Of a stretch of DNA of 64,000 nucleotides, positions 1,919 to 19,864 are shown piece by piece. The position numbers were made by a program, and so were the translations under genes. The notes beneath the pieces are model-generated. The model was not told the DNA's origin, did no database searches, and saw only the letters and a program-made list of their open reading frames with translations. The stretch's first letter is position 1. The number at the start of each line of letters is the position of its first letter. This stretch comes from Burkholderiales bacterium (GTDB lineage: Bacteria; Pseudomonadota; Gammaproteobacteria; Burkholderiales; Casimicrobiaceae). Location of the stretch: contig JAYVNO010000207.1 of the NCBI GenBank assembly GCA_043758415.1, positions 562-64,561 of the forward strand, written 5' to 3'.

Positions 1919-4846
1919 TTGAGCATCACTAAAACAACGGTTACTGAGTTCGCGGGCGAACTAAATTTGAGTCCAGAAGCACTGCTGAAACAGCTTGGCG
2001 CCGCGGGTGTTAACGCAGCTTCAATGGACGCGGATTTGTCGGCCTCCGATAAAGGCAAGCTACTTGAGTATTTGCGCAAGCAACATGGTGGAGCAGACGA
2101 GAGCGCGGGGAAGCGAATCACGCTTGTGCGTAAATCGACCAGCGAACTGCGTACTGCAGACGCTACGGGTCGCTCGCGAACCGTGCAGGTAGAAGTGCGA
2201 AAAAAGCGCGTGCTCGTGACGCGTGTAACTGAAACCGCAGCGCCTGCGGTTGCCGCAGTTGATGCGCCAACAACAACTGCTAAGCCTCTGTTGTCCGCAG
2301 AAGAAATCGCATCGCGCGAAGCGGAAGCACAGCGCGGCAATGCGTTGCGCGAGATTCAGGAGAACGAACAGAAGCAAAAGCAAGATCGCGTGGCCGCACG
2401 CGCGGAAGCGGGTGAAGCAACCCATGCCGCGAACGCAAAGCCCGCAAGCGATGAGGCACAAGCCGTTGCCTCTGAAGTTACGCTACCAGACGCTGTCGCG
2501 GCAACGGAATCAGTGCCAACACCACCCGTTGTTACGAGCGCCGCGCCAGCACCGATGATCGGTGCCGCTGCGTTGATTAAACCAATAGCTCCTGCCAAGG
2601 TGGCCGTACTGGCTGCTGGTGTTGTAACCGCGCAGCCAGCTGCGGAACTACAAGCCGCAACACCTGTATCGGCTAAGGCTGCCACTCCTGCAATCGCGTC
2701 CGTGCCCACCAAATCGGCACCATCGGCAGCGGTCATTGCCAATCGCTCGCGCATCGGTGAGCGCGTTGATATGACCCCGGTGCCGCCAAAACCTAAGTCG
2801 ACCGAAAACACCCTGCATCGTCCGACCAAGCCGGGTGTCAAGCCTGATGCCAAGGGCGCGCCGGGTACGGCGCGTCCTGCCGTCGCCAAACCGGGTGACA
2901 AAAAGCCAGCGGCGTGGCAGGAAGACGCTGCTCGTAAAAAGGTCATGAAGACTCGCGATGCGCCGCCTGACGCGGCAAAAGCTGGGGCATGGAAGGCGGG
3001 TACACGTGGTGGTGGCCGTGGACATGCCGGCAAACGTAGTTCAGCCCCTGAGCAAACGACGCAGGTTGATCAGTCGGACGCAATCCTTAAAGAGATCGTG
3101 GTGCCCGAGACCATCACCGTGGGCGAGCTCGCGCACAAGATGTCGATCAAGGCCGCTGAACTGATCAAGAGCATGATGAAGATGGGCCAGATGGTCACCA
3201 TCAATCAAGTGCTTGATCGCGATACCGCGATGATTCTGGTTGAGGAAATGGGCCGCGTTGCGGTTGCGGCGAAGGACGACGATCCTGATTCTGCGTTGAC
3301 CGATCACGCGACCGACTCTGACGCGAAGATGGAAACTCGCCCTCCGGTCGTGACCATCATGGGCCACGTCGATCATGGCAAAACCTCACTGCTCGACAAG
3401 ATTCGCAGCGCACGCGTTGCCAGCGGCGAAGCAGGTGGGATCACGCAGCACATCGGTGCGTATCACGTCACCACGCCGCGCGGCATCATCACCTTCCTTG
3501 ATACGCCAGGTCACGAAGCCTTTACGGCAATGCGCGCGCGCGGCTCCAAGGTCACCGACATTGTGATTTTGGTGGTTGCAGCCGACGATGGTGTGATGCC
3601 GCAAACCAAAGAAGCTATCGCGCATGCGAAAGCCGCGGGCGTGCCGATCATCGTTGCTGTCAACAAAATCGACAAGCAGGGTGCGAATCAAGAGCGCGTC
3701 AAGCAAGAGCTGGTCACCGAAGGTGTAGTGCCCGAAGAGTATGGCGGTGAAGCCATCTTCGTTCCGGTGTCTGCGCTGACCGGCGAAGGTATCGACTCGT
3801 TGCTGGAAACGATTCTGCTGCAAGCTGAAGTGCTTGAGCTTAAAGCGCAAATCGATGCGCCAGCACGCGGTATCGTGATCGAGGCCCGACTCGACAAAGG
3901 TCGCGGCCCCGTGGCTACCGTGTTGATCACCAGTGGCACGTTGAAGCGTGGCGATATGGTGTTGGCGGGTTCGGTGTTCGGTCGTGTTCGCGCGATGAGT
4001 GATGAAGACGGCAAGAACATCGTCACGGCAGGCCCCGCGATCCCTGTTGAAATTCAGGGCTTGTCGGATGTGCCAGGTGCGGGTGACGACATTCTGGTGT
4101 TGGGTGACGAGCGTAAAGCGCGCGAAATCGCGTTGTTCCGTCAGGGCAAATACCGTGACGTCAAGCTCGCCAGACAGCAAGCTTCGAAACTCGAAAACGC
4201 GTTCGCCAACATGGGCGAAGCGGCAACCAAATTGCTGCCGCTCATCATCAAGGCTGACGTGCAGGGCTCGTACGAGGGCTTGTCCTATGCGCTGGGCAAA
4301 CTGTCAACATCTGAGGTTCGTGTGCAAACGGTTCACAGCGCGGTCGGTGCCATCACCGAATCTGATGTGAATTTGGCTGCCGCATCAAAGGCCATCATCA
4401 TCGGCTTCAACGTGCGGGCCGATGCGGCCGCCCGCAAGCTTGCTGAGAATGAAGGCGTGCAAATTCGCTACTACGACATCATTTATGAAGCCGTGGATGA
4501 CGTTCGCGATGCGCTGTCCGGCATGCTCGCTCCAGAGCAAAAGGAAAGCGCACTCGGTGTGGTCGAAATTCGTCAGGTGTTCCGCATCTCAAAGATTGGC
4601 GCGATTGCCGGTTGCTACGTGCTCGAAGGCGTGGTCAAGCGCAGTGCCCTGGTGCGTTTGCTGCGCGACAATGTTGTTGTCTGGTCTGGCGAGCTCGATT
4701 CGCTCAAGCGCTTCAAGGACGACGTCAAGGAAGTCAAAGAAGGCTACGAGTGCGGTCTGTCGCTTAAGAATTACAACGAGATTCAAGAGGGCGACAAGCT
4801 CGAGATCTACGAAATCGTTGAAGTTCAACGCTCTCTGGCGCAGTAA
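1919..4846 (+). CDS. infB: Translation initiation factor IF-2
   Basis: GTPase motifs [21 protein letters not shown]; follows nusA. Confidence 0.98.
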
Positions 4847-4865
4847 AGCAGCAAAGCAGTAAGGC

Positions 4866-4934
4866 ATGGCAATGAAACAGGGGTTCTCGCCACGAGCACC
4901 GGATTTCACGAACGCGCGGCAGACTAAGGTATGA
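4866..4934 (+). CDS. Putative 22-codon upstream ORF MAMKQGFSPRAPDFTNARQTKV whose stop overlaps the rbfA start
   Basis: Hand translation; residues MKQGFSPRA are identical to the RbfA N-terminus; TGA at 4932-4934 overlaps ATG at 4931. Expression unproven. Confidence 0.4.
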   Translation: MAMKQGFSPRAPDFTNARQTKV

Positions 4935-5365
4935 AGCAAGGCTTTTCTCCGCGCGCGTTACGAGTCTCCGAGCAGGTTCAACGCGAACTTGCGCAGATGC
5001 TTTCGCTTGAGGTGCGCGACCCGCGCGTCAAGGGCGTCACCATCACGCAAGTGGAGGTGACCGCCGACCTGTCGCACGCGATGGTGCGCTACGTGCATCC
5101 TGAAGGCTACGCGGGACAGTCTGCGGCCGATGCTGGCTTCAAGAGCGTCAACGGTTTTTTGCGGCACGGTATTGCCGAGCGCCTGTCGATATTCAAAGCG
5201 CCGAATCTGCGCTTTGAATACGATAAATCATTTGAAGACGGCATGCGACTGACTGCGTTGATTGATACGGCGCGGGCTGATGACGCACGTGTGGTTGCAC
5301 CCGATGATGCGCGCGTCATTGCACCCGATGACAGCGCGGTCAGCGCTGCCGAAAACCCCAAGTAA
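4931..5365 (+). CDS. rbfA: Ribosome-binding factor A
   Basis: RVSEQVQRELAQML...VRDPRV...ITQVEVTADLSHA...PNLRFEYD; position between infB and truB. Confidence 0.95.
   Translation: MKQGFSPRALRVSEQVQRELAQMLSLEVRDPRVKGVTITQVEVTADLSHAMVRYVHPEGYAGQSAADAGFKSVNGFLRHGIAERLSIFKAPNLRFEYDKSFEDGMRLTALIDTARADDARVVAPDDARVIAPDDSAVSAAENPK
5279..5344 (+). repeat. 24-bp imperfect tandem repeat (about 2.7 copies) encoding DDARV(V/I)AP in the RbfA tail
   Basis: gatgacgcacgtgtggttgcaccc / gatgatgcgcgcgtcattgcaccc / gatgacagcgcggtcagc. Confidence 0.8.
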
Positions 5366-5373
5366 TTCGCGTC

Positions 5374-6318
5374 ATGGCCCTGCACGGCGTCGCGCTGGTG
5401 GACAAGCCAGCGGGCATGTCCTCGTTTTCAGTCGTATCCCGGCTACGACGAATATTCAGGACGTTGGGCGTAACAAAAGCGGGGCATACCGGCACGCTTG
5501 ATCCGTTGGCGACGGGCTTGCTGCCGATCTGCATCGGCGAATCTACCAAGTTTGCGCAGCGTCTGCTTGATGCAGACAAAGGTTACTTTGCGACCGTCAA
5601 GCTGGGCGTTGCGACGACGACAGCAGACGCAGAAGGCGAAATCACCGCTCGCAGTAATGTGCTGATAGACGCGCCGACCTTCGAGGCAATGCTCGCCCAA
5701 TTTCACGGCAAGATCGTGCAGGTGCCGCCGATCTACTCTGCCCTGAAAATTGATGGCAAACCAGCGTACGAATATGCGCGCGCCGGTCAAGCCGTCAAGA
5801 TCAAATCACGCGTTGTTGAAATCTACTCCGTCGAATTGGTTGCAGCACGTTCTGAACTGCAAGAGTTCGCCATCAACGTTCGTTGCAGCAAGGGCACGTA
5901 CATCCGAACGCTCGCTGTAGACATCGCGCTGGCCCTGGGCACAGTGGGTCACCTGGCTGGCCTTTGCCGTACGCGAACTGGCGGATTCGATCTGGCCGCC
6001 GCGCATCCGCTTGAGGCGTGGATGGAAACGGATGACGCCACGCGTCTCAGCTGGTTGTTGCCCACGGAATCTTTGGTCGCCGAATTGCCGTCGCTCGATT
6101 TGACGGCGCAGCAGGCGATTGATATTTGCAACGGCAAAGTTGTGGCGGTGCGGACGGAAACGGCAAATCAGGCTCCTGAGGCTTCGGACGCCAAACCGGA
6201 CGGCAATGTAGCGCTCTTGCGGCTTCAAGATGCTCACAAGGGCTTTCTGGGCCTTGGCGCGCTATCCGCAGGCGGCATGCTTCGCGCGGAACGGCTGTTA
6301 TCGACTCAATCGGCCTAA
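5374..6318 (+). CDS. truB: tRNA pseudouridine(55) synthase TruB
   Basis: VDKPAGMSS, KAGHTGTLDPLATG, CSKGTYIRTLA motifs. Confidence 0.97.
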   Translation: MALHGVALVDKPAGMSSFSVVSRLRRIFRTLGVTKAGHTGTLDPLATGLLPICIGESTKFAQRLLDADKGYFATVKLGVATTTADAEGEITARSNVLIDAPTFEAMLAQFHGKIVQVPPIYSALKIDGKPAYEYARAGQAVKIKSRVVEIYSVELVAARSELQEFAINVRCSKGTYIRTLAVDIALALGTVGHLAGLCRTRTGGFDLAAAHPLEAWMETDDATRLSWLLPTESLVAELPSLDLTAQQAIDICNGKVVAVRTETANQAPEASDAKPDGNVALLRLQDAHKGFLGLGALSAGGMLRAERLLSTQSA

Positions 6319-6618
6319 CCAAGCACCAGTTTTCGCTATCAGCTTTTGTCTGAGAGTACCGTATCAATTGGGCGTTTCTGCAAATTTCGCAGAATGTCGA
6401 TTTTCCGTTTTTTCACGTGCCAAGTCCCAATTGAATGGGCTTTAATGGATGTGCTGGCGAAGAGTTACTAGTGTCGGACGCATCCGTGAATAGGCGTGCG
6501 CAGGCAACAGGCGCTGGCGCAATTTCCGCATGCGTTGCGTCCTTAAGGGTCTAGACGGGGTGTTTTTCGTTGTCGACTGCGGCGACCCAAGCATCACGAA
6601 CATGAGGGGAGATCGATT

Positions 6619-7737
6619 ATGGCCATCAACGGTTCCACCCTGGGTATCGCGCTGTCGGGCGGCGGCTTTCGCGCGACGCTGTTCAGTCTGGGTAGTTTGT
6701 GGCGGCTCAACGACGCCGGGCTGCTCGGCAAATTGGATCGCGTGACCAGCGTTTCCGGTGGCTCGATCCTCGCTGGGATTGTGGCCAGTCGCTGGAAAAA
6801 CTTGCAGTTTGTCGATGGACGTGCGGCCAATTTCGTCAGCGAAATTGTTACTCCGACGCAGACATTTTGTGCTGACAGCGCTGACATCGAAGCGGGCATT
6901 CTGGGCTGGATTACGCCGTTCAAAAGCGCGGGCGATTACTTGCGCGGGCACTACGAAGACGCGCTCTTCGGCGACACCCTGTTGCGCGATATCCCGGCAC
7001 CGGACGTGGACGGCAACCCAACGTTTATTTTCTATGCAACCAATATGCAAACCGGGCGCAACTTTCGCATGCGTCAGGACTACATCGCCGACTCCCGGCT
7101 TGGCGTATCGCGCCACACCGAGCTCACACTGGCCGCTGCGGTCACCGCCTCGAGCGCGTTTCCGCCGATCTTCTCGCCGATCATTTTGAACACTGACCCG
7201 GCCGACTGGCAGGACGAAGGCGGCCTCGGCGGCCTGGCGGACGACGTCGACTCCCTACGCAAAAAAATCATTCTCGCCGATGGCGGCATCTACGACAACA
7301 TGGGCCTTGAGTCGCTGATCGGCCACATCGACATCGCACTGATCAGCGACGCCGGTGCGCCGTTCGCTACCGAGCCATCGGTGCGCGGCGATCCGTTCAG
7401 CCAGCTCGGTCGGGTGCGCGACATATTGATTGATCAAACGCGGGCGCTGCGAAAGCGTCATGTGATTGACGAGTTCGACGCCGGGCGCAGACGCGGTGGC
7501 TATTGGGGCATCGGCACCCGGATCGGTAAATATCAGGCCGCCAACGCGCTGGCAATCGATAACGCGACGAGCCTCTCTTTGGAGGCGGAACCGACGCGAC
7601 TGGCAAAGATTGAGCCCGAGCGGCAGGGGCAGTTGATTAACTGGGGCTACGCGCTCTCCGATGCGGCGCTGCGCGTGCGCGCGCAACTGACGCTGCCACC
7701 GGTGACGCAGTTGCCGTTGCCGCAGTACCCGTTGTAG
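6619..7737 (+). CDS. Patatin-like phospholipase
   Basis: Gly-rich ALSGGGFRA, nucleophile motif TSVSGGS, catalytic ADGGIYDN; RBS-like gagggggag upstream. Confidence 0.9.
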   Translation: MAINGSTLGIALSGGGFRATLFSLGSLWRLNDAGLLGKLDRVTSVSGGSILAGIVASRWKNLQFVDGRAANFVSEIVTPTQTFCADSADIEAGILGWITPFKSAGDYLRGHYEDALFGDTLLRDIPAPDVDGNPTFIFYATNMQTGRNFRMRQDYIADSRLGVSRHTELTLAAAVTASSAFPPIFSPIILNTDPADWQDEGGLGGLADDVDSLRKKIILADGGIYDNMGLESLIGHIDIALISDAGAPFATEPSVRGDPFSQLGRVRDILIDQTRALRKRHVIDEFDAGRRRGGYWGIGTRIGKYQAANALAIDNATSLSLEAEPTRLAKIEPERQGQLINWGYALSDAALRVRAQLTLPPVTQLPLPQYPL

Positions 7738-7759
7738 TGCGCGTCGCAATCGGGAGCCT

Positions 7760-10609
7760 GTGATGGATCGGCTGCATCTAAAGCGCTGGAGCATTGATCT
7801 CGACGACCACGCATTCGCGCGCGCGTTGGCCGCCGTGGGTGTGCTGCGGGCTGACCGGACGGCGCGCGTCCTGACACCCACGCACCTCGCCGCAGGCAAT
7901 GCCGGTGGCCTGGGTTCGCGACTACTGTGGCAGCTACCGACAGGCGATTTAACCGGCGCGACCAGTGCACGTGACGCGGCGGACAGATGGTCAAGAATTC
8001 GTAGCGAATGCGCAAACCCCATTCGGCTGACGCTGATCGACTCGCCCGTCCATGAGCTTGCGATCTGGTCACGTTGGCTTGCTACGATCACTGAGATCGA
8101 CGGCCTCTGCATTGCCCCCGAACCTGCGTTCAAAGGCCGATCCGAGTGGCGGCTGCCGTTCACCGTGTCCACGCTTGCGTCGGACGCCCTTGCCGTGCCG
8201 CTTCGAGATCGGCGAAGCTTTGATCCCGCGAACTGGCCGTTTCGCTTTGTGACTGCGGGCCGCGCCCATGATCGCTGCGAAATCCTGGTGTTATCGCTGC
8301 CCATCGCAGCGGCGCTGGCAGCGCTGTTGCAAAGTGGTCTTCGCCTGCGCGCCACGCTGGTCATGGTCGCGGGCTTGGGCGGGGACTCTATGGAGAGCGC
8401 GTGGCCGCTGATCGTCGCGGTTGCGGCGCGGGTGTCGGCGAGCGGCGTAGCGATAGCGCCCCCGGGCGACGCCGTGCGGTTGGCTGATCAGGTGAACAGC
8501 ATGTGCTTTGATCTGTCGCACAACGCGCCGATTGACGCCGCGCTGTGGCAAGCCTTCGGTCGTGCTGCGCAATTGTTCGCCAGTCGCGAATTGATCGACG
8601 CCAGTCAGGTCAGTGCTCAGGTAGAAAAACTCGGCAAGCGAATAGAGGCGCTGCGGTCAGGGGCCACGGCTGCTCTGGGTGGTCGATCACGCGCGCTGCT
8701 GACGCATGGCGCGCGGCCTAGCCCATCGCCGCGCGCGGGCGAGGGTGCCTTGCGCGAAGCGATGGCCGCGTCGGCACCCACCTTTGAGTTCGCCCATGAA
8801 AGCGGGGAGGCTGCGGCCATGACCGAACTCGCAGACGTGGTGCGCGTCGCCAATGCGAAAGCGGTCGCTGCAACACGCTCGGCCCGCTTCATTCAGCAGC
8901 GCTGCTTTGGTGGCGACCGCAATGAATCCAGCAACCCATTAAAGGAGATTCACGACGCCTTCGCGGTCGGTGAAGCGGTACTGGCGAGGATTCGCATTGG
9001 CGACGTCGCCGACGCGCTTTGGGTCAGCAGCAACGTGGCCTTTCCCGATCACAAGCTGCCGCCGAATGAGACCGGCCATCGCTTGCAGGTCATGTTCTTC
9101 GAGCCGCTTCAGTTTGCCGCGCCGCTGCTCGCCGACATTCATCTCCCGGTACTCGGCGCAAGCAGTGAGGCCGAATTTCTGTTCACGCCGAGGGCTGCCG
9201 GAGCGTTTGAGGCGCGCATCACCATCGTGCATCGCGGCCGCATTCTGCAAACCGCGCTGATGCAGGCGCGGGTGTTGGTCAAGCGCGGCGCGCGCAGGGT
9301 AGCGACGCAAAGAATCACCCTGCGCGATGAGGCTCTGGTTCGTCGCGACTGGACGGCGCTTGAGCAGCGACCCCGCTTTGATCTGGCGATGGTGTGCAAC
9401 CACGATGGCCAGCACACACCGCGCATGACCGCGCTGTCGGACAGGCGCGCGTGGGCGAAGGATTTGACCGCCATTGATGAAGTGGTCAAGGCGATTAACG
9501 TTGAGCTCTCCGCAGTGGCCAGCAATGTGCGCGATTACGCAGACGGACTCGACAAGGGCGAAAACCCGAAGCTGCTGGTCAATCTCGCGGGATTGGGCAC
9601 CGAGCTATTCCGGTCGCTCATTGAGGATCAGATTGCCAAAACCGCCGTCGGCGGGCTCGATGTCACCCTCGATGCGGTCACCCACATCCAGATTGTCAGC
9701 ACCCGCTCCGACGCCGTGGTGCCGATCGAATTTGTCTACGACTACGGCATGCCCGACGACAGCATCGCCACCGTGTGCCCGGACTTTCGCGATGGGCTGA
9801 AGAGCGGCACCTGCAAGACGACCTGCCCCGGCCGCACCGACCCGTCAAAGCACGTCTGCCCGATGGGCTTCTGGGGTATCCGCAAAGTGATCGAGCGGCA
9901 TGTGTTTGAAAGCACGCAGGAGAACCCCGACAACGCGGCGCTGATTGTGCAAAGTGAAGTCAGCGCCGAGCGCGATACGCTCAACATCCTTGACAGCGCG
10001 GTGGTCGGTTACAGCAACCGGGTCAAGCCGGCGAGCGTCAAGGCGCTGCTCAAATCGATGCGGGCATCAGTCCATGGCAAGGTCGTCGAAGTCAAGACCT
10101 GGGACGACTGGAGCGCGGCGGTGCAGAAAAACTCGCCGCAACTGCTGGTGGCGTTCCCGCATCATGACGGCATCAACCTCAATGCGAAACTGGAAATCGG
10201 CAATCAGCCGATGAGCACGTTGCGGCTGCTGACTTACGGCAAACCGACGAAAACGGCGGGCGGCATGCCGATCCCGATCCATGTGCGGATGCCCAATGCG
10301 GCACCGCCGATGGTGTTGCTGCTCGGCTGCGACGTGGCGGGCACGGCGCAGCAGTTTGGCAATCATGTGCGCAATTTCCGCATGGCGGGGGCGGCCATTG
10401 TGCTGTCCACCATCGCCACGGTGTTTGGTGAACATGCGGTTGCCGTGGGCACATCGATGGTTAAAAAACTGGTCGATCAACGCGGTCGCACGGCCGATAA
10501 CGATCAGTTCGGTGAGATTTTGCGCGATGCCAAAAGACAGGCGTTGCTCGATAGTCTGCCCATGGCGCTGTGCGTGGTGGCGTACGGCGACGCCGACTGG
10601 AAACTGTGA
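7760..10609 (+). CDS. 949-aa protein: unknown N-terminal region, beta-sandwich-like middle, C-terminal CHAT (caspase-like) domain
   Basis: C-terminal LLVAFPHHDG (His) and MVLLLGCDVAG (Cys), then RMAGAAIVLSTIATV...EILRDAKRQ...CVVAYGD, matching the CHAT/peptidase C14-like layout. Confidence 0.7.
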   Translation: MMDRLHLKRWSIDLDDHAFARALAAVGVLRADRTARVLTPTHLAAGNAGGLGSRLLWQLPTGDLTGATSARDAADRWSRIRSECANPIRLTLIDSPVHELAIWSRWLATITEIDGLCIAPEPAFKGRSEWRLPFTVSTLASDALAVPLRDRRSFDPANWPFRFVTAGRAHDRCEILVLSLPIAAALAALLQSGLRLRATLVMVAGLGGDSMESAWPLIVAVAARVSASGVAIAPPGDAVRLADQVNSMCFDLSHNAPIDAALWQAFGRAAQLFASRELIDASQVSAQVEKLGKRIEALRSGATAALGGRSRALLTHGARPSPSPRAGEGALREAMAASAPTFEFAHESGEAAAMTELADVVRVANAKAVAATRSARFIQQRCFGGDRNESSNPLKEIHDAFAVGEAVLARIRIGDVADALWVSSNVAFPDHKLPPNETGHRLQVMFFEPLQFAAPLLADIHLPVLGASSEAEFLFTPRAAGAFEARITIVHRGRILQTALMQARVLVKRGARRVATQRITLRDEALVRRDWTALEQRPRFDLAMVCNHDGQHTPRMTALSDRRAWAKDLTAIDEVVKAINVELSAVASNVRDYADGLDKGENPKLLVNLAGLGTELFRSLIEDQIAKTAVGGLDVTLDAVTHIQIVSTRSDAVVPIEFVYDYGMPDDSIATVCPDFRDGLKSGTCKTTCPGRTDPSKHVCPMGFWGIRKVIERHVFESTQENPDNAALIVQSEVSAERDTLNILDSAVVGYSNRVKPASVKALLKSMRASVHGKVVEVKTWDDWSAAVQKNSPQLLVAFPHHDGINLNAKLEIGNQPMSTLRLLTYGKPTKTAGGMPIPIHVRMPNAAPPMVLLLGCDVAGTAQQFGNHVRNFRMAGAAIVLSTIATVFGEHAVAVGTSMVKKLVDQRGRTADNDQFGEILRDAKRQALLDSLPMALCVVAYGDADWKL

Positions 10610-10621
10610 GGGAGAAGCGTC

Positions 10622-11743
10622 ATGCCAACGAAGAAGTTTTTTCAGATTGAAATGCTGCGCGCGGCGCACGGCGATTGTCTGTGGCTTGAATACGGCACGG
10701 CGACGCGCACCCGGCGCATCCTGATTGATGGCGGGCCGATTGGCCGCTGGGAGTCGCTCGAATCGCGCATCGCGCAACTTGAAGACGGCGCGTCCACCTT
10801 CGAGTTAATTGTGCTCACTCATGTCGACACCGATCACGTCGATGGGCTGGTGCGCCTGTTCGCACCGAAAAAGAATACCTGGAAGTTCGACACGAAAGAC
10901 GTTTGGTTCAACGGCTGGAAGCATTTGCAGGATCAAAATCTGGGCGGCAATCAAGGCGAGTTTTTCAGCGCGCTGATTGAAGCGCGCATGGGGTCTGCCA
11001 AATGGAATGCGGAGTTTGACCACAAGACCATCGTCGTTCCCGATGAGGGCGAGCTGCCCACAGTCAAGCTTGCCGACGACTTTCGCATCACGCTGTTGTC
11101 GCCGACACCGGCGAAGCTTAAGAAGATGAAAAAGGCGTGGGAAAAAGACGTCAAAAACTTCGCACCGGGTGACCTGGACGCCGCGTGGGAAGCGCTGGCG
11201 ACGCAGAAGAAATATCTGCCTGATGACGGACTGCTCGGGTCGACACCGGGCATCGATGCCGAGCTCGAACGGCAATCACGCCCTGACAATGCCGCCGCCA
11301 ACGGCGCGACCATCGCATTTTTGGCGGAGTACGCGGGCATGAGCGCGCTGTTCCTGGGCGACGCCCATCCTGACGCCGTTGTCGCATCGCTGTCGCGACT
11401 GCTTGCGGCGCGCGGCGTCGAGCGCTTGCAGGTTGACGCGGTGAAGATTGCGCACCACGGCAGCAAGGGCAACACCACCGATGCGCTGCTGGCGTTGCTT
11501 GACAGTCCACGCTTTTTGATCAGCAGCAGCGGCGCAATTTTCAAGCATCCCGATGCCGAGGCGATCAAGCGCATCATCAGTCGCAGTCATCATCAACCGC
11601 CGACGCTGTACTTCAACTATCGCAGCGAGTTCACCGAGATCTGGGACGACGTCGCGCTGCGCAAGAAACTCAAGTATTTGACGGTGTTTAACGAGACCGA
11701 CGACACCGTCAACGCGCCGCTGACCATTCGCCTGACCAGGTAG
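10622..11743 (+). CDS. ComEC/Rec2-type metallo-beta-lactamase-fold hydrolase
   Basis: HGDCLWL, ILIDGG, THVDTDHVDG (HxDxDH), LFLGDA, KIAHHGS motifs; no signal peptide or membrane segments seen. Confidence 0.85.
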   Translation: MPTKKFFQIEMLRAAHGDCLWLEYGTATRTRRILIDGGPIGRWESLESRIAQLEDGASTFELIVLTHVDTDHVDGLVRLFAPKKNTWKFDTKDVWFNGWKHLQDQNLGGNQGEFFSALIEARMGSAKWNAEFDHKTIVVPDEGELPTVKLADDFRITLLSPTPAKLKKMKKAWEKDVKNFAPGDLDAAWEALATQKKYLPDDGLLGSTPGIDAELERQSRPDNAAANGATIAFLAEYAGMSALFLGDAHPDAVVASLSRLLAARGVERLQVDAVKIAHHGSKGNTTDALLALLDSPRFLISSSGAIFKHPDAEAIKRIISRSHHQPPTLYFNYRSEFTEIWDDVALRKKLKYLTVFNETDDTVNAPLTIRLTR

Positions 11744-11875
11744 CGCACGATGGCGGTTGCTGCAAGGGTATCGCTGAGTACATCGCCGCCCCGGTGAAGG
11801 CTGGGAGCGAACGTTTTCGCGGACCATCTGATTCCGTTTCTACGTCGTTACGGAAATAAATAGGCTCAATTTTCC

Positions 11876-11990
11876 GACGCAGATTCGCGCAGATTCGACG
11901 CCGATGACCGCAGATTTTCTTGATTGTCTGTAATGGAGAATATTCAAAAAATCTGCGGCAATCTGTGTTAAATCCGCGTTAATCTGCGTC
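11876..11990. repeat. Nested inverted-repeat element built from GCAGAT/ATCTGC units
   Basis: gacgcagatt (11876-11885) pairs with aatctgcgtc (11981-11990); inner ccgcagatttt (from 11908) pairs with aaaatctgcgg (11947-11957). Confidence 0.75.
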
Positions 11991-12040
11991 AAAAATCAAT
12001 GCTGTTTTGAAATAGAAGTGGAATGAACTGTATGCCGCTC

Positions 12041-13771
12041 CTACTTGGCTTGCGCATGCAGCTTGTCATACGCCGCGAGCAACTTGCCGTGCATCACACA
12101 ACCGTCCATCGTGAGCCCCGGTGCCGAGAGTCCCATGAAGCGGTTCTTCTTCGCGAGAAGCGTCTGCGCTTGCTGCACCGTATCGGCACCGTAGAGCAAG
12201 GCGAGCGCGTTCAGATACGATTTCACGTCGCCCAAATCGTCCAGATTGATGAGCTGCTCAATGCAGGCGTAAACGATACGCCGCTTCGGATTCAGTTGAT
12301 CGAAATGGCGAATCCAGTCGCAGCCTTCCAGCGTGGCTTCTCTGTCGCCAATGGCGAGTGCCAGCAGCGTCTTGAGCTCGCCCACACGCAGGTCGGCCCA
12401 GAAGGAATCGGCGTCTGCCGCCATGCCAATCAACAGCGGCAACGGACGCACATCCGCGAGCCCGGATTCGTTCAGGGTGGCGAGCAGATCGGCGCACTCA
12501 TCATCATCCAGATCGGTGAGATTGAGAACGGCCTCGCGGAAGTGATTGGCGACACTGTTGTTCTCATGCTCCAGATCGTCAATGGGATAAATCTCCGACA
12601 TGCCCGGCACCAGGATGCGGCAACCGTAGACGCCCAGATGCGTGAAGTCGGCGATGTAAATGTCGTAATCGTCCTTGTGAATGCGATCCACGGCCCAGGC
12701 GTAGTCTTCGGCGGTGGTGGTGCCGAAGTTCCAGTCGCAGAATTCATAGTCAGGCGTGTCGCCGAGGAAGTTCCAGTGAATGACACCGCTCGAATCGACG
12801 AAGTGAATTTCGATGTTCATCGAACTCGCCGCTTCGTCGAGATCAAATCCGGGCGGCGGAAAGCCCGCCAGCGAGTCGAGCGCACGGCCCTGTAGCAGCT
12901 CGGTCAACGCACGTTCCAGCGCAATTTCAAAACGCGGATGGCCGCCAAAACTGGCGAAGCAACCTTGATCGTCCGGGTGCAACAGCGTCACATTCATCAC
13001 CGGATATTGCCCACCCAGTGACGCATCTTTCACCAGAATGCCAAAGCCCGCCGCGCGCAATGCGGCAATACCTGCGGCGATGCGCGGATAGCGCGCGATC
13101 ACCGTCTCCGGCACGTCAGGCAGACAGATGCCTTCGGCGATGATGCGGCCCTTGATGTGCCGCTCGAAAATTTCTGACAGCGCCTGGGTGCGTGCCTCGG
13201 CCTGTGTGTTGCCAGCCGACATGCCGTTGCTCACGTACAGATTGCCGATGATGTTGACCGGGATATAGGTCACCGCACCATCGCGCTCACGCACATACGG
13301 AATGGCACAAATGCCGCGCTCGACGTTGCCGGAATTGAACTCAACGAGGCTCGTAGCGTTGATCGTGCCGTCGGGGTTATAGAACGCGTGCAGCTCCGGG
13401 TTCAATATCGCCCCGGGCCAACTGCCGTCGTCGGTCGCCGCAAACCATTTTTCCTGCGGGTAATGCACGTAAGGTCGCGCGGCAATCACCGGCCCGAGGT
13501 AATAGTGGGTCCAGAAATAGTTGGTCGACAAGCGCTCAAAATATTCGCCGAGCGCGCTGGCCATGCAGGCGAGCTTTGTCGCGCCCTTGCCGTTGGTGAA
13601 CAGCAACGGGCAATCGCGATCCCGAATGTGCACCGACCAGATGCCGTCGACCGGGTTTAACCAACTGCGCTCCTCGATGTGAAAGCCGAGCGCCAAAAGC
13701 TTGCCGGTTAGCGTCTCGATGGTCGATTCAAGCGAGGCGTCTTTGCCGGGGATAAAGTGTTGCGCATTCAT
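12041..13771 (-). CDS. ycaO: YcaO-family protein (S12 methylthiotransferase accessory factor type)
   Basis: IPGKDASLE...TNGKGAT...SALGEYFERL...SNGMSAGN...LTELLQGR; start placed at MNAQHF (13771) rather than the ORF-track start 13882. Confidence 0.88.
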   Translation of the reverse strand: MNAQHFIPGKDASLESTIETLTGKLLALGFHIEERSWLNPVDGIWSVHIRDRDCPLLFTNGKGATKLACMASALGEYFERLSTNYFWTHYYLGPVIAARPYVHYPQEKWFAATDDGSWPGAILNPELHAFYNPDGTINATSLVEFNSGNVERGICAIPYVRERDGAVTYIPVNIIGNLYVSNGMSAGNTQAEARTQALSEIFERHIKGRIIAEGICLPDVPETVIARYPRIAAGIAALRAAGFGILVKDASLGGQYPVMNVTLLHPDDQGCFASFGGHPRFEIALERALTELLQGRALDSLAGFPPPGFDLDEAASSMNIEIHFVDSSGVIHWNFLGDTPDYEFCDWNFGTTTAEDYAWAVDRIHKDDYDIYIADFTHLGVYGCRILVPGMSEIYPIDDLEHENNSVANHFREAVLNLTDLDDDECADLLATLNESGLADVRPLPLLIGMAADADSFWADLRVGELKTLLALAIGDREATLEGCDWIRHFDQLNPKRRIVYACIEQLINLDDLGDVKSYLNALALLYGADTVQQAQTLLAKKNRFMGLSAPGLTMDGCVMHGKLLAAYDKLHAQAK

Positions 13772-14199: not shown

Positions 14200-14277
14200 T
14201 TTATGCATAAAGTCGGTTTTATCGGTAAAACGGGTTGTATCCCGCAGGCATGCGAGGTTTCAGTTTAGAGTTGTTGC
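14200..14277. repeat. Bipartite dispersed motif TTTATGCATAAAGTCG...TTAGAGTTGT, copy 1
   Basis: Same two boxes at near-identical spacing at 57107-57183. Confidence 0.6.
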
Positions 14278-14395
14278 CACACGAGAAGACGCAGCCAACC
14301 GGAAGTAAGGCTGCGCAACCCCACCATTTCGCTGGCAAGTGATGCACAATCACGCCACGACAAGCACTAAAGCTTGTCACACCAAGGAGATCAAA

Positions 14396-15010
14396 ATGAA
14401 ACTCGCCCCCGCTATCAGGATAGCGCTGTTCGTCGTCGCCGCCATGTTGCTCGGCTGCTCCAGTATGCCCAGCCAACCGGGATGGACTACGCTGGTTGAC
14501 GGCGCATCGGGCCTTGACAATTTTGATCGTGTCGGCGACGCCAACTGGCGCGCCGAGAACGGCGCCATCGTCGCTGACAAAGCAAGCGTGGCCAGCTATC
14601 TGGTGTCGAAGAACAGCTACAAGGACTTCCAGATCAAGGCTGAATTCTGGGCCGATCACACCACCAATAGCGGCGTTTTCCTGCGCCTGTCTGATCGCAA
14701 AAATGTCACGGCGGCGAACTCATACGAGGTCAATATTTACGACCAGCGTCCCGATCCGAATTACGGCACCGCAGCCATCGTCGATATTGCCAAAGTGGTC
14801 CCGATGCCCAAGGCCGGTGGCAAATGGAACTCCTTCGTCATCACCGCCAAAGGCAACCGCCTGATCGTCGAGTTCAACGGCGTGCAAACGGTCGACGTGC
14901 AGGACAGCAAATTCGCGAGCGGCCCCTTCGCGCTGCAATTCGGCAATGGCCCGAAAGACGCGCCGGGCGGCGTCATCAAGTGGCGCAAGGTGCAGATTAG
15001 TTCGCTGTAG
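14396..15010 (+). CDS. DUF1080 (3-keto-disaccharide hydrolase family) lipoprotein
   Basis: Lipobox LLGC; YLVSKNSYKDF, NSGVFLR, GKWN...ITAKGNR, GPFALQ; RBS aaggag before ATG 14396. Confidence 0.85.
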   Translation: MKLAPAIRIALFVVAAMLLGCSSMPSQPGWTTLVDGASGLDNFDRVGDANWRAENGAIVADKASVASYLVSKNSYKDFQIKAEFWADHTTNSGVFLRLSDRKNVTAANSYEVNIYDQRPDPNYGTAAIVDIAKVVPMPKAGGKWNSFVITAKGNRLIVEFNGVQTVDVQDSKFASGPFALQFGNGPKDAPGGVIKWRKVQISSL

Positions 15011-15105
15011 CGATCAGCGAACCGGCGATCACCACTCAGCCGCGCGTTCGCGCAAAATACGGGAACATACCCGTATTTTTTCGCCTGCTTTGAAGGACTT
15101 ATTCC

Positions 15106-15828
15106 ATGGCCGTTGATCCGCTGCCTCTCGACCCGGCCATTGTGCGCACGCTTCAGGGCGTGACCACGGCGACGCTGACTACGGTGCTCTTGAAGAAGGG
15201 CTTGCGCAACATCTGGATGCGCGGCGCGAAACCGTTGCGGTCGGGGCAGCCGCGTGTGATCGGGCGCGCTTTCACGCTGCGCTTCGTGCCTGCGCGTGAA
15301 GATCTGGCAACGCCTGCCTCCTGGGGCTCACCGACATCCACGCGCGCAGCGATTGAGGCGATGCCGCAGGGGGCCGTCGCTGTGGTCGACGCCATGGGCA
15401 CCACCGATGCTGGCATCTTCGGCGACATCCTCTGCGCACGCATGCAAAAGCGCGGCGTGGCAGCGCTGGTCACCGATGGCGTGGTGCGCGATCTCGACGG
15501 CGTGCTCGGCACCGGGCTTCCGGTGTGGTGTCAGGGCACCGCCGCCCCGGCGTCGGTCAATGGCCTCACCTTCGTGAGCTGGCAAGAGCCGATTGGTTGC
15601 GGCGGTGTGGCGGTGTTCCCGAACGACATCGTGGTTGTCGATAGCGACGGTGCGGTGTTGATTCCCGCCGCCTTGCTCGATGACGTGGTTGCCGCAGCCG
15701 TGGAGCAGGAACGCCTCGAAGGCTGGATCATGACGCAGGTTGATGCAGGGCTGCCGCTGCTTGGCCTCTATCCGCCGAATGACGAAACCAAAGCGCGCTA
15801 CGAGGCGTGGGCGAAGGCGCTGCGCTGA
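15106..15828 (+). CDS. RraA/HMG-aldolase family protein
   Basis: GRAFTLRFVPARED, GIFGDILCARM, GVAALVTDGVVRD, PNDIVVVDSDGAVLIP. Confidence 0.88.
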   Translation: MAVDPLPLDPAIVRTLQGVTTATLTTVLLKKGLRNIWMRGAKPLRSGQPRVIGRAFTLRFVPAREDLATPASWGSPTSTRAAIEAMPQGAVAVVDAMGTTDAGIFGDILCARMQKRGVAALVTDGVVRDLDGVLGTGLPVWCQGTAAPASVNGLTFVSWQEPIGCGGVAVFPNDIVVVDSDGAVLIPAALLDDVVAAAVEQERLEGWIMTQVDAGLPLLGLYPPNDETKARYEAWAKALR

Positions 15829-15861
15829 GGCCGCATCCACGCCGCGCTGATCGGCGTGCGT

Positions 15862-16800
15862 TTACTTGATCATGCCGAGCCTGCGCGCCAGCGGCAGCGA
15901 GTTTTCAGCGCGGAGTTTCAGGAATGCGGGCACCTGATCGTAGGTGATGTCGATCTGCTCGAAACCGGCGTCGGTCATCTGCTTGCGATGCTCTGGGTCC
16001 TTGTTGATTTTTGCGAAGAGATCGGACACCTGCCTGCGTACAAGCTCGGGTGTCGCCCGCGGCACGGCAACGCCGCGATAGGCACCATCGACCCAGTCAA
16101 ATCCCAGCTCCCTGAAGGTGGGCGCAGTGGGAAACTGGGCCAGGCGGCTCGGTGTGCCTACAGCAAGCACGCGGGTCTTTTCCTTGTTGGCGATGGCGAG
16201 CGTGGTGAAGGTCATCGCCGCATCCACATGTTTGCCCAGCAACTGGGTGATGATCTCGCCGGTGCCCTTGAGCGGGATGTAGGTGACCTTCATGCCGCCC
16301 TGAAGCTCAAGTCGCGCTGTGGCCATATGGGCAGGCGAGTTGGTGGCGCTGCCCGCCACATTCAGCTTGCCCGGATCGGCTTTCGCCGCCGCCGCAAAAT
16401 CGGCAAAAGTCTTAAACGGGGAATCGGCGGCGACCACCAGCGCGTCCGGCGTGAAATGAAAGAAAAATACGTTGATGACGTCTTCGGTCTTGTACTGTGC
16501 CTGTGCTTCGAGCGGTTGTAGCAGGATGTGCGGCAGATTGGTGCCCATGACGGTGTAGCCGTCGGCAGGCAGGGAATTCAACTGCGCCCAGGCCACGGCA
16601 CCGCCCGCGCCGGGCTTGTTCTGCACCAGAAAGTCTTTGCCGGTCAGCTTGGCGGCCACCTTGCCCTGCAGGCGTGCGGCGATATCGCTCTCACCTGCAG
16701 GGACGAAAGGAATGACATAAGTAATGGCGCGCTCGGGGTACTCCGCGTGAGCGAGCGTCGCAGCAAGCGTGACGGCCATCGCGGCAAATAGCTTTCTCAT
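15862..16800 (-). CDS. Tripartite tricarboxylate transporter substrate-binding protein (Bug/TctC family)
   Basis: Signal peptide, YPERAITYVIPFVPAG..D, NKPGAGG, ADGYT; start MRKLF at 16800. Confidence 0.9.
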   Translation of the reverse strand: MRKLFAAMAVTLAATLAHAEYPERAITYVIPFVPAGESDIAARLQGKVAAKLTGKDFLVQNKPGAGGAVAWAQLNSLPADGYTVMGTNLPHILLQPLEAQAQYKTEDVINVFFFHFTPDALVVAADSPFKTFADFAAAAKADPGKLNVAGSATNSPAHMATARLELQGGMKVTYIPLKGTGEIITQLLGKHVDAAMTFTTLAIANKEKTRVLAVGTPSRLAQFPTAPTFRELGFDWVDGAYRGVAVPRATPELVRRQVSDLFAKINKDPEHRKQMTDAGFEQIDITYDQVPAFLKLRAENSLPLARRLGMIK

Positions 16801-16930
16801 CCCGATTCTCCTGATCTTGTCATCTACGTAGTGTAAGGTGGAATTTGCCCGTGCCGTTAACCGCAATGGGACGTGGCCAGCGCGGACCTTAAACAAACGG
16901 CTACGCTATACGAACCTCTGGCCGAAGGCG

Positions 16931-19660: not shown

Positions 19661-19864
19661 ATAAATCTCCTGCATATGGGCCGGATTTGCCTGATGGGTC
19701 AGCACGCTGATGAGTGCTAGGCACGCACTATCTATCGTAGACATCAGGCTGCTTAACGATGGTGAGTCAGAACTGGCCTACCCAGGTAGCCCCGTTATGC
19801 CAATTTCGCATTTACTGCGCGTTGCGCAGCGTACGTGGAACTCGCCTGGTAGAAAGTTGTCCGG

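Follow-up and report, generated by a model that had tools for sequence, protein, structure and literature searches.

A stretch of 64,000 nucleotides from a Burkholderiales bacterium of the family Casimicrobiaceae (GenBank assembly GCA_043758415.1, contig JAYVNO010000207.1, positions 562 to 64,561 of the forward strand; hereafter the window) carries, between truB and ycaO, a cassette of three genes that encode a patatin-like phospholipase, a large protein with a caspase-fold CHAT domain (hereafter the CHAT protein) and a protein of the metallo-β-lactamase (MBL) fold (Table 1). Sequence comparisons, the predicted structure of the middle protein and the analogy with characterised systems suggest, with a probability of about 0.6, that this cassette is an abortive-infection (anti-phage) module built around a protease-gated nuclease. 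On the sequences and on that analogy, the cassette is read most economically as one in which the CHAT domain would cleave the MBL at two Leu-Gly sites and in this way release a DNase.

The MBL family in question consists of pro-nucleases in which two loops block the active site (PMC12799240; bioRxiv 10.1101/2025.11.14.688446). In Hachiman HamMAB, AVAST and Avs2/Avs4, a trypsin-like partner cuts both loops and converts the MBL into a Zn-dependent nuclease of double-stranded DNA (dsDNA), and further MBL clades adjoin proteases of the caspase-/CHAT-type and of the subtilisin type (PMC12799240; bioRxiv 10.1101/2025.11.14.688446). The caspase-linked loci were named canu by Tuck et al. (Science 2025; PMC12799240), and their representative from K. 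aerogenes, CanABC, protects against T4 provided that the caspase Cys, the nuclease His and the glycines G104 and G189 of the gating insertions are in place, the mutation of KaeCanC G104 abolishing defence (PMC12799240). Judged by its sequence, the MBL of the cassette is a homologue of the protease-gated pro-nucleases Avs1a, LmuA and KaeCanC. It matches Pfam Lactamase_B (8e-7) and has its metal ligands in place (HVDTDH at residues 67-72, D247 and H249 in DAH 247-249, HH at 278-279 and H309 in HPD 309-311), and its best matches are defence MBLs and not β-lactamases, i.e., the PADLOC models of LmuA (PDLC03854, 1.8e-68), Avs1a (4e-46) and RTasMBL (3e-40). The NCBIfam model of Avs1a gives 228.7 bits, under its cut-off of 420, and ComEC/Rec2 is a weaker relative. 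With KaeCanC, whose sequence was taken from Table S1 of Tuck et al. (PMC12799240), the alignment runs over the full length (29% identity, 369 columns, E 7e-48), and bit scores place the MBL about equally distant from KaeCanC (153) and from a trypsin-linked LmuA-MBL of Bacillus (157). Residues 28-296 span only 176 positions of the Pfam core profile, which leaves some 90 residues of insertion. Two Leu-Gly dipeptides, aligned with the two glycines that KaeCanC requires, are predicted to be the cleavage motifs of the gating loops, and in a family alignment of 75 sequences, KaeCanC included, they are nearly invariant: Leu in 74/74 and Gly in 73/74 at the first motif, and Leu and Gly each in 71/74 at the second.

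The middle protein is less easily recognised, since it has no match in profile searches of Pfam, NCBIfam, PADLOC and PHROGs, nor among PDB sequences, whether the latter are searched with the protein alone or with a profile of 100 sequences. Its AlphaFold2 model, computed from an alignment of 100 homologues, has a predicted local distance difference test (pLDDT) of 89.9 and a predicted template modelling score (pTM) of 0.90; a model from eight sequences, at a pLDDT of 49, was unusable, and the larger alignment was used instead. The top Foldseek matches of the model in the PDB are the separase protease domain, Csx29/TPR-CHAT, human and yeast separase, gingipain R and the CHAT anti-σ factor DdvA, all with E-values of 1e-8 to 1e-6, a probability of 1.00 and about 440-520 aligned columns (separase 5fby at 1.2e-8; the Csx29 TPR-CHAT entries 7zoq, 7y85 and 8eex at about 1e-8 to 1e-7). 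Across the 100 homologues His801 and Cys857 are invariant, and in the model each comes after a β-strand (795-799 and 851-854, respectively), as in clan CD proteases. Pfam itself recognises five of 39 diverse family members, three as CHAT and two as Peptidase_C25. Among them, the Streptomyces member L091 scores 25.6 bits against CHAT (PF12770), over the gathering cut-off of 24, the member L103 reaches 23.4 bits, and both matches project onto residues ~750-928 of the protein in the window; in the most divergent members of the family, the aligned positions are occupied by the canonical motifs CHG and NACET. On the modelled fold and these motifs, the middle protein carries a caspase-fold, CHAT/separase-like domain, and the invariance of the His/Cys dyad argues that it is an active protease.

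Ahead of that domain, the architecture of the protein would fit a sensor. The N-terminal region (residues 1-375) belongs to no recognisable family. It is followed by an Ig-like segment to which the secondary Foldseek matches of the model, the CARDB and ASF1 Ig sandwiches (~140 columns), would correspond, and then by a helical segment with four clustered cysteines that probably form a zinc-binding knuckle (among the 100 sequences, C673 and C700 never vary, and the conservation of C685 and C689 is at least 90%). Mean identity is 26% in the N-terminal region vs. 35-39% in the rest of the protein, and between near-identical orthologues the substitutions gather in the N-terminal and Ig-like parts: one orthologue has 95% identity there and 99-100% elsewhere, and another 80% vs. 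92-95%. This fast-changing N-terminal half is what the sequence of a sensor would be expected to look like.

How general is this arrangement? The seven relatives returned by a word-indexed search would make the family rare, but that count was rejected as an artefact of the index, as an exhaustive profile search gave thousands: 2,737 representative clusters (at 50% identity) with E<=1e-3 and 1,111 with E<=1e-30, mostly of 930-1000 aa. A genome scan with an alignment of eight CHAT sequences located 78 related loci across eight or more phyla, hosted by Betaproteobacteria (Thauera, Accumulibacter, Rhodoferax, Brachymonas and others), Gammaproteobacteria, Actinomycetota (Streptomyces), Acidobacteriota, Bacteroidota, Verrucomicrobiota, Gemmatimonadota, Chloroflexota and Myxococcota. 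In 72 of the 75 judgeable loci, the CHAT gene is followed directly by a co-directional MBL gene; outside this count stand three loci truncated at contig ends, the two most distant members and an Actinomadura locus (L100) in which the MBL accompanies a second, inverted copy. The gene order, as a pair and often as a trio, recurs in more than 70 loci with unrelated neighbourhoods, and the association of the genes is far beyond chance. Of 61 judgeable loci, 36 (about 60%) have the patatin gene immediately before the CHAT gene. Since the MBL gene nearly always adjoins the CHAT gene and the patatin gene is often absent, it is the CHAT-MBL pair that forms the conserved unit, with the patatin as an accessory; the co-occurrence of three genes expected from the sequence-only reading, an earlier annotation of the window made without database searches, thus holds for the pair and not for the patatin as a constant member. 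In the 32 complete cassettes, the evolutionary distances are strongly correlated (Mantel r=0.95 for CHAT-MBL, 0.80 for CHAT-patatin and 0.81 for MBL-patatin; p=0.001 each), and the rate of evolution of the CHAT protein is about 1.4 times that of either enzyme.

Two of the related loci show more elaborate arrangements of proteases around the MBL. In L100 (Actinomadura physcomitrii NZ_WBMS02000018, 1408-12681), a TPR-CHAT protein (Pfam CHAT, 2.9e-24) is encoded directly 5' of the family member at 4663-7596, and a second, shorter family member (10756-12681, minus strand) converges on the first together with its own MBL (9629-10759, minus strand), so that the cluster totals three CHAT proteins and one MBL. 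In L081 (Paucibacter sp. PLA-PC-4), a gene for an Avs-like fusion of a trypsin-like protease with a STAND/NACHT NTPase (2702-5356) overlaps the start of the CHAT gene, which leaves a single MBL beside two types of protease.

Does the CHAT protein, then, act on the MBL at all? It might instead spare it, cutting another substrate or the patatin only, or serving as a scaffold, with the MBL regulated by binding or constitutively active on a specific substrate. Such a division of labour would accommodate the equal distance of the MBL from its trypsin-associated and its caspase-associated homologues, as well as the fact that homology of the CHAT protein to CanA or CanB is undetectable (hhalign with the 100-sequence CHAT profile gives a probability of 0.3% for KaeCanA and 0.1% for KaeCanB). 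It would leave to coincidence, however, that the two positions at which mutations kill KaeCanABC defence are precisely those with a near-invariant Leu-Gly, and it fits poorly with the tight pairing and strong co-evolution of the two proteins and with the invariant dyad, which argues for an active protease. Moreover, because about 40% of the pairs occur without a patatin, the MBL is the one candidate substrate that is constantly present. All in all, we regard a CHAT protein that leaves the MBL untouched as improbable.

The position of the patatin is more ambiguous. Judged by its motifs, the protein itself is catalytically intact: it scores 62.7 bits against Pfam PF01734 (cut-off 27.7) and has the oxyanion motif GGGFR (14-18), the nucleophile Ser46 in SVSGG, in which Ser replaces the first Gly of the GxSxG-type motif, and Asp221 in ADGG, all of which are kept in 40 cassette-linked homologues. 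No PADLOC model matches it. Its gene is found mainly in one well-supported clade (in 32 of the 35 judgeable loci there, the window counted) and sporadically outside it, and on the tree the patatin label must change 10 times, with at least seven of these changes forced by the starred branches alone. The genes found 5' of the CHAT gene in patatin-less loci are unrelated to one another (ThiC, SulP, MFS, GMC oxidoreductase and others), with no recurrent replacement among them. In one of these loci, from a metagenome-assembled genome (MAG) of Acidobacteria (L086), a gene for a neutral/alkaline ceramidase-like protein (4097-5362; Pfam 9.8e-20) lies directly 5' of the CHAT gene, and its product may be a different lipid hydrolase in the position of the patatin. 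In a betaproteobacterial MAG with an orthologous trio (L001, READ01000041), an ATP-dependent DNA ligase and a second, unrelated patatin of 400 aa on the opposite strand are encoded just 3' of the trio (at 14230-16324), and an ISL3-type transposase fusion lies 5' of it.

Whether the patatin is a second effector under the control of the CHAT protein is, in our estimation, a matter of even odds, the alternatives being an independent co-effector or a passenger gene. Its sporadic presence, with the repeated label changes on the tree, its looser distance correlation (0.80 vs. 0.95 for the MBL) and the failure to find a conserved cleavage loop in it would all suit a gene that stands outside the mechanism and merely accompanies the pair, either as a passenger or with an independent action of its own. 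Against that, whenever the patatin gene is present it directly precedes the CHAT gene in the same orientation, separated from it by a short gap or overlapping it, and this holds in unrelated contexts and down to ~30% CHAT identity; its phylogeny is strongly congruent with that of the pair, and its catalytic motifs are conserved. We consequently hold a patatin foreign to the mechanism to be unlikely. As for a possible cleavage site, the GGLGG insertion at residues 201-205 was considered as a cleavage loop and rejected, as it is peculiar to the patatin of the window, and those hydrophobic-Gly dipeptides that are conserved (24-25, 161-162 and 228-229) are not diagnostic. The suggestion in the sequence-only reading that a sensor-protease switches on the hydrolase and/or the lipase has therefore fared differently for its two halves: the characterised homologues of the MBL and the conserved glycines speak for the hydrolase, and the lack of conservation of the Gly-rich insertion leaves the lipase without such backing.

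How would such a module work? We infer its defence function, its trigger, the cleavage of the MBL by the CHAT domain and any control over the patatin along the following lines. The N-terminal α/β region and the Ig-like domain of the CHAT protein would detect an infection cue, which would probably drive the oligomerisation of the protein and switch on its C-terminal protease (His801/Cys857). The protease would then cut the two gating loops of the MBL, at L107-G108 and L205-G206, and the cut MBL would open as a Zn-dependent dsDNA nuclease, with the destruction of both phage and host DNA. The patatin would be an optional second executioner that attacks the membrane, most likely under the control of the CHAT protein by cleavage or binding.

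The distribution of the cassette is that of a mobile element. Of 34 genomes from the genus only four carry it, with identities of 40-61%, and within the order it recurs in a single further family; the gene tree departs from taxonomy (e.g., members from Verrucomicrobiota and Bacteroidales are nested within Betaproteobacteria), and distant copies, annotated as hypothetical, reside on plasmids, as in Sinorhizobium, where they stand beside IS66 and HNH genes. These comparisons, together with the higher GC content of the cassette than of its flanks, mark the cassette as horizontally mobile. A further plasmid, pMYCSM01 of Mycobacterium sp. JS623 (L106, 1-15515), carries a distant CHAT-MBL pair, annotated as hypothetical, in a region rich in conflict genes, its neighbours being two TIR-domain proteins, a caspase-family protein and a WD40 protein.

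Several observations weigh against an anti-phage module of the kind proposed. Profile similarity between the CHAT protein and CanA is absent, and the transfer of the mechanism consequently rests on the MBL side and on the fold class; no conserved cleavage loop was identified in the patatin; no copy of the cassette was found in phage genomes; in the window the neighbours of the cassette are housekeeping genes; and the linkage to defence islands, which the sequence-only reading had put forward as a check, proved weak, with few defence-type genes (three caspase genes, two TIR genes, one type I restriction-modification set, PDC-M05 and mad2) among 125 immediate neighbours in 32 loci. In the closest relatives (G009, G014 and G005), synteny is lost right after truB, where sugar-transport, GH31 or glycosyltransferase genes are found, and this region qualifies neither as a cleanly unoccupied site nor as a hotspot of defence genes.

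The ordinary metabolic or regulatory genes that make up most of the neighbourhoods would be equally at home with a different purpose, namely that the gated nuclease/lipase module is real but not antiviral, and serves in stress-induced or developmental cell death, in plasmid or mobile-element addiction or in inter-bacterial conflict. Nonetheless, all characterised members of the MBL family (HamM, the MBLs of Avs1a, Avs2 and Avs4, and CanC) serve phage defence, the patchy distribution, which resembles that left by horizontal gene transfer, and the fast-evolving N-terminal half of the CHAT protein are typical of immune genes, and a minority of the loci do adjoin TIR, caspase, restriction-modification or Avs-like genes. 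We thus think a role outside phage defence rather unlikely, and retain an anti-phage module as the preferred reading.

Among known systems, Canu is the closest. Both have a clan-CD cysteine protease of the caspase family, with intact His/Cys, encoded immediately 5' of a homologous MBL pro-nuclease, and both have an Ig-like domain with the protease, three genes and mobile loci; at the sequence level, the two glycine cleavage positions of KaeCanC are conserved in the cassette. CanA, however, is a MALT1-like paracaspase of 390 aa with a C-terminal Ig fold, whereas the protease of the cassette is a single chain of ~950 aa that comprises a large N-terminal region, an Ig-like domain, the four-Cys knuckle and a C-terminal CHAT domain. 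A third gene of the CanB type is also missing, its place in the count of three being taken by the patatin, a protein mentioned neither in PMC12799240 nor in bioRxiv 10.1101/2025.11.14.688446. On the other hand, canu loci are loosely defined, as 'variable in organization' and with 'caspase-/CHAT-' proteases (PMC12799240). Given so loose a definition, the lack of similarity to CanA and CanB excludes orthology with CanABC but not membership of the broad class, and the sequences place the cassette as no orthologue of CanABC, yet inside the loosely defined class of caspase-/CHAT-associated gated nucleases. The 'MBL clade 2' described beside caspase-like proteases by Evans et al. (bioRxiv 10.1101/2025.11.14.688446) is the equivalent of Canu. 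The statement of the sequence-only reading that the operon matches no named system does not stand in view of these loci, both published in 2025; its proposed PADLOC search, in turn, connects the MBL with LmuA, Avs1a and RTasMBL and returns nothing for the patatin or the CHAT protein.

The trypsin-MBL modules (AVAST type 1 Avs1a/b/c, Avs2/Avs4, Hachiman HamMAB, Lamassu LmuA-MBL and DRT UG9) share with the cassette the MBL family and, putatively, the gating logic, in which a sensor-fused protease cuts two loops to free a DNase. They differ from it in the protease, trypsin-like and of the serine type vs. a cysteine CHAT domain, in the partners, as the cassette has no STAND NTPase, HamB helicase, SMC LmuB or reverse transcriptase, and in the gene order, the MBL gene lying 5' of the protease gene in those modules and 3' of it here. 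The cassette is not an AVAST type 1 system, with an Avs1a score under the cut-off and neither a STAND nor a trypsin gene in the operon, nor is it Lamassu, as the MBL alone matches the PADLOC LmuA model and no SMC-like gene is nearby. The best structural matches of the protease half of the CHAT protein, Csx29 TPR-CHAT of the type III-E CRISPR Craspase and the eukaryotic separases, are tightly gated, site-specific clan-CD proteases with a His/Cys dyad; their sequence similarity to the CHAT protein is, however, undetectable, and the cassette differs from Craspase in having no TPR array, Cas7-11 or Csx30/31 and in its putative substrate, an MBL nuclease. CBASS of the CapV type has in common with the cassette a patatin with an intact Ser/Asp dyad, presumed to be a membrane-destroying effector. 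In contrast to CBASS, neither the operon nor its flanks encode a cyclase, a nucleotide-sensing domain is lacking and, as stated above, the patatin is outside the PADLOC models; the absence of cyclase and STAND genes from the operon, noticed from the sequence at the outset, is confirmed by the gene content of the operon and flanks.

There is also a precedent for a protease of this kind acting on a lipase. In Lysobacter capsici, LcCaspase licenses the zymogen LcHydrolase, a lipase-like α/β-hydrolase, by double cleavage (bioRxiv 10.1101/2025.11.14.688446). The parallel is that of a caspase-like protease that licenses a lipase-like hydrolase; the differences are the fold, α/β-hydrolase vs. patatin, and the fact that no cleavage sites were identified in the patatin. 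More tentatively, and with less than even confidence, one may picture a single-chain sensor-CHAT 'initiator caspase' that licenses two unrelated executioners, a gated DNase and a patatin, in a branched bacterial caspase cascade, and whose N-terminal/Ig half would be an unrecognised class of phage sensor, different from the STAND, Hachiman and Lamassu sensors. What is new with respect to the literature consulted is the single-chain architecture of ~950 aa (N-terminal region, Ig-like domain, four-Cys helical segment and separase-like CHAT domain), the size and breadth of the CHAT family and the recurrent patatin.

At the locus itself, the three genes are intact and co-directional, with gaps, as called, of 22 bp between the patatin and CHAT genes and 12 bp between the CHAT and MBL genes. 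The open reading frames (ORFs) thus lie on the plus strand of the truB-ycaO interval just as the sequence-only reading had described them. Its other descriptive calls were sound as well: the intact motifs of the two enzymes, which agree with the Pfam matches, Ser46/Asp221 and the metal ligands, and the CHAT assignment, which agrees with the AlphaFold2/Foldseek fold, the invariant His801/Cys857 and the Pfam CHAT matches of relatives. For the CHAT gene, the sequences make ATG 7763 more likely as the start than GTG 7760, because orthologues of the protein open with MDRLHLKRW; GGGAG at 7752-7756 precedes this ATG by six bases, and the first gap would then be 25 bp. The 5' flank is nusA-infB-rbfA-truB, and ycaO lies 3' on the minus strand. 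A scan of the leader located a terminator-like hairpin at 6376-6394, 3' of truB, and because of this position the cassette probably has its own promoter, although a sequence scan of the leader (6319-6618) gave no match to the σ70 consensus. The GC content is 0.61-0.65 in the cassette vs. 0.55-0.58 in the flanks, and no direct repeats or att sites were found flanking the cassette.

Table 1. Features of the cassette and its leader (positions in the window).
Feature	Positions	Strand	Description
Intergenic leader 5' of the cassette	6319-6618	+	terminator-like hairpin; ribosome-binding site GAGGGGAG at 6603-6610
Patatin-like phospholipase gene	6619-7737	+	372 aa; Pfam PF01734
CHAT protein gene (middle)	7760-10609	+	949 aa ORF
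CHAT protein residues 1-375	7760-8884	+	α/β N-terminal region (AlphaFold2), putative sensor
CHAT protein residues 376-568	8885-9463	+	all-β Ig-like (CARDB/ASF1-like) sandwich; strands as predicted by AlphaFold2
CHAT protein residues 569-745	9464-9994	+	helical segment; four-Cys cluster C673, C685, C689, C700 (...VCPxGFWG)
CHAT protein residues 746-949	9995-10609	+	predicted catalytic caspase-fold domain; His801 codon at 10160, Cys857 codon at 10328
MBL-fold pro-nuclease gene	10622-11743	+	373 aa; Avs1a / LmuA-MBL / HamM / CanC family
Predicted gating-loop cleavage motif 1	10940-10945	+	Leu107-Gly108 (NLGGNQGE); aligns with KaeCanC G104
Predicted gating-loop cleavage motif 2	11234-11239	+	Leu205-Gly206 (DGLLGS); aligns with KaeCanC G189

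Two further features of the window lie 3' of the cassette. Between the MBL stop codon and the 3' end of ycaO, an imperfect palindromic element of ~146 bp (11860-12005) has arms of 59 nt each (11871-11929 and 11937-11995) made of GCAGATT/AATCTGC repeats. It is a dispersed repeat, present at about 25-30 loci of the same genome with 90-96% identity, and looks like a miniature inverted-repeat transposable element (MITE) or a repetitive extragenic palindrome (REP); only one copy adjoins the cassette, and several others sit at contig ends, so that the element probably breaks the assembly. Further downstream (16500-18500), the GC content climbs to 0.67-0.73, with strong GC and AT skew, within a minus-strand ORF of 937 aa with DUF6600 (16931-19744), whose product may be a low-complexity or repeat-rich protein.

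Pro-nucleases activated by two cuts were shown to be a recurring immune effector module only in 2025, and KaeCanABC is the sole caspase-linked system that has been tested. The CHAT family, which extends across many phyla, lies outside PADLOC 2.0 and NCBIfam 20, its members carry the annotation 'hypothetical protein' throughout, and its characterisation would address several questions: is two-cut licensing independent of the type of protease? Can one protease arm two effectors? What does the new sensor domain recognise? Beyond them, the annotation of defence systems would also gain from the family.

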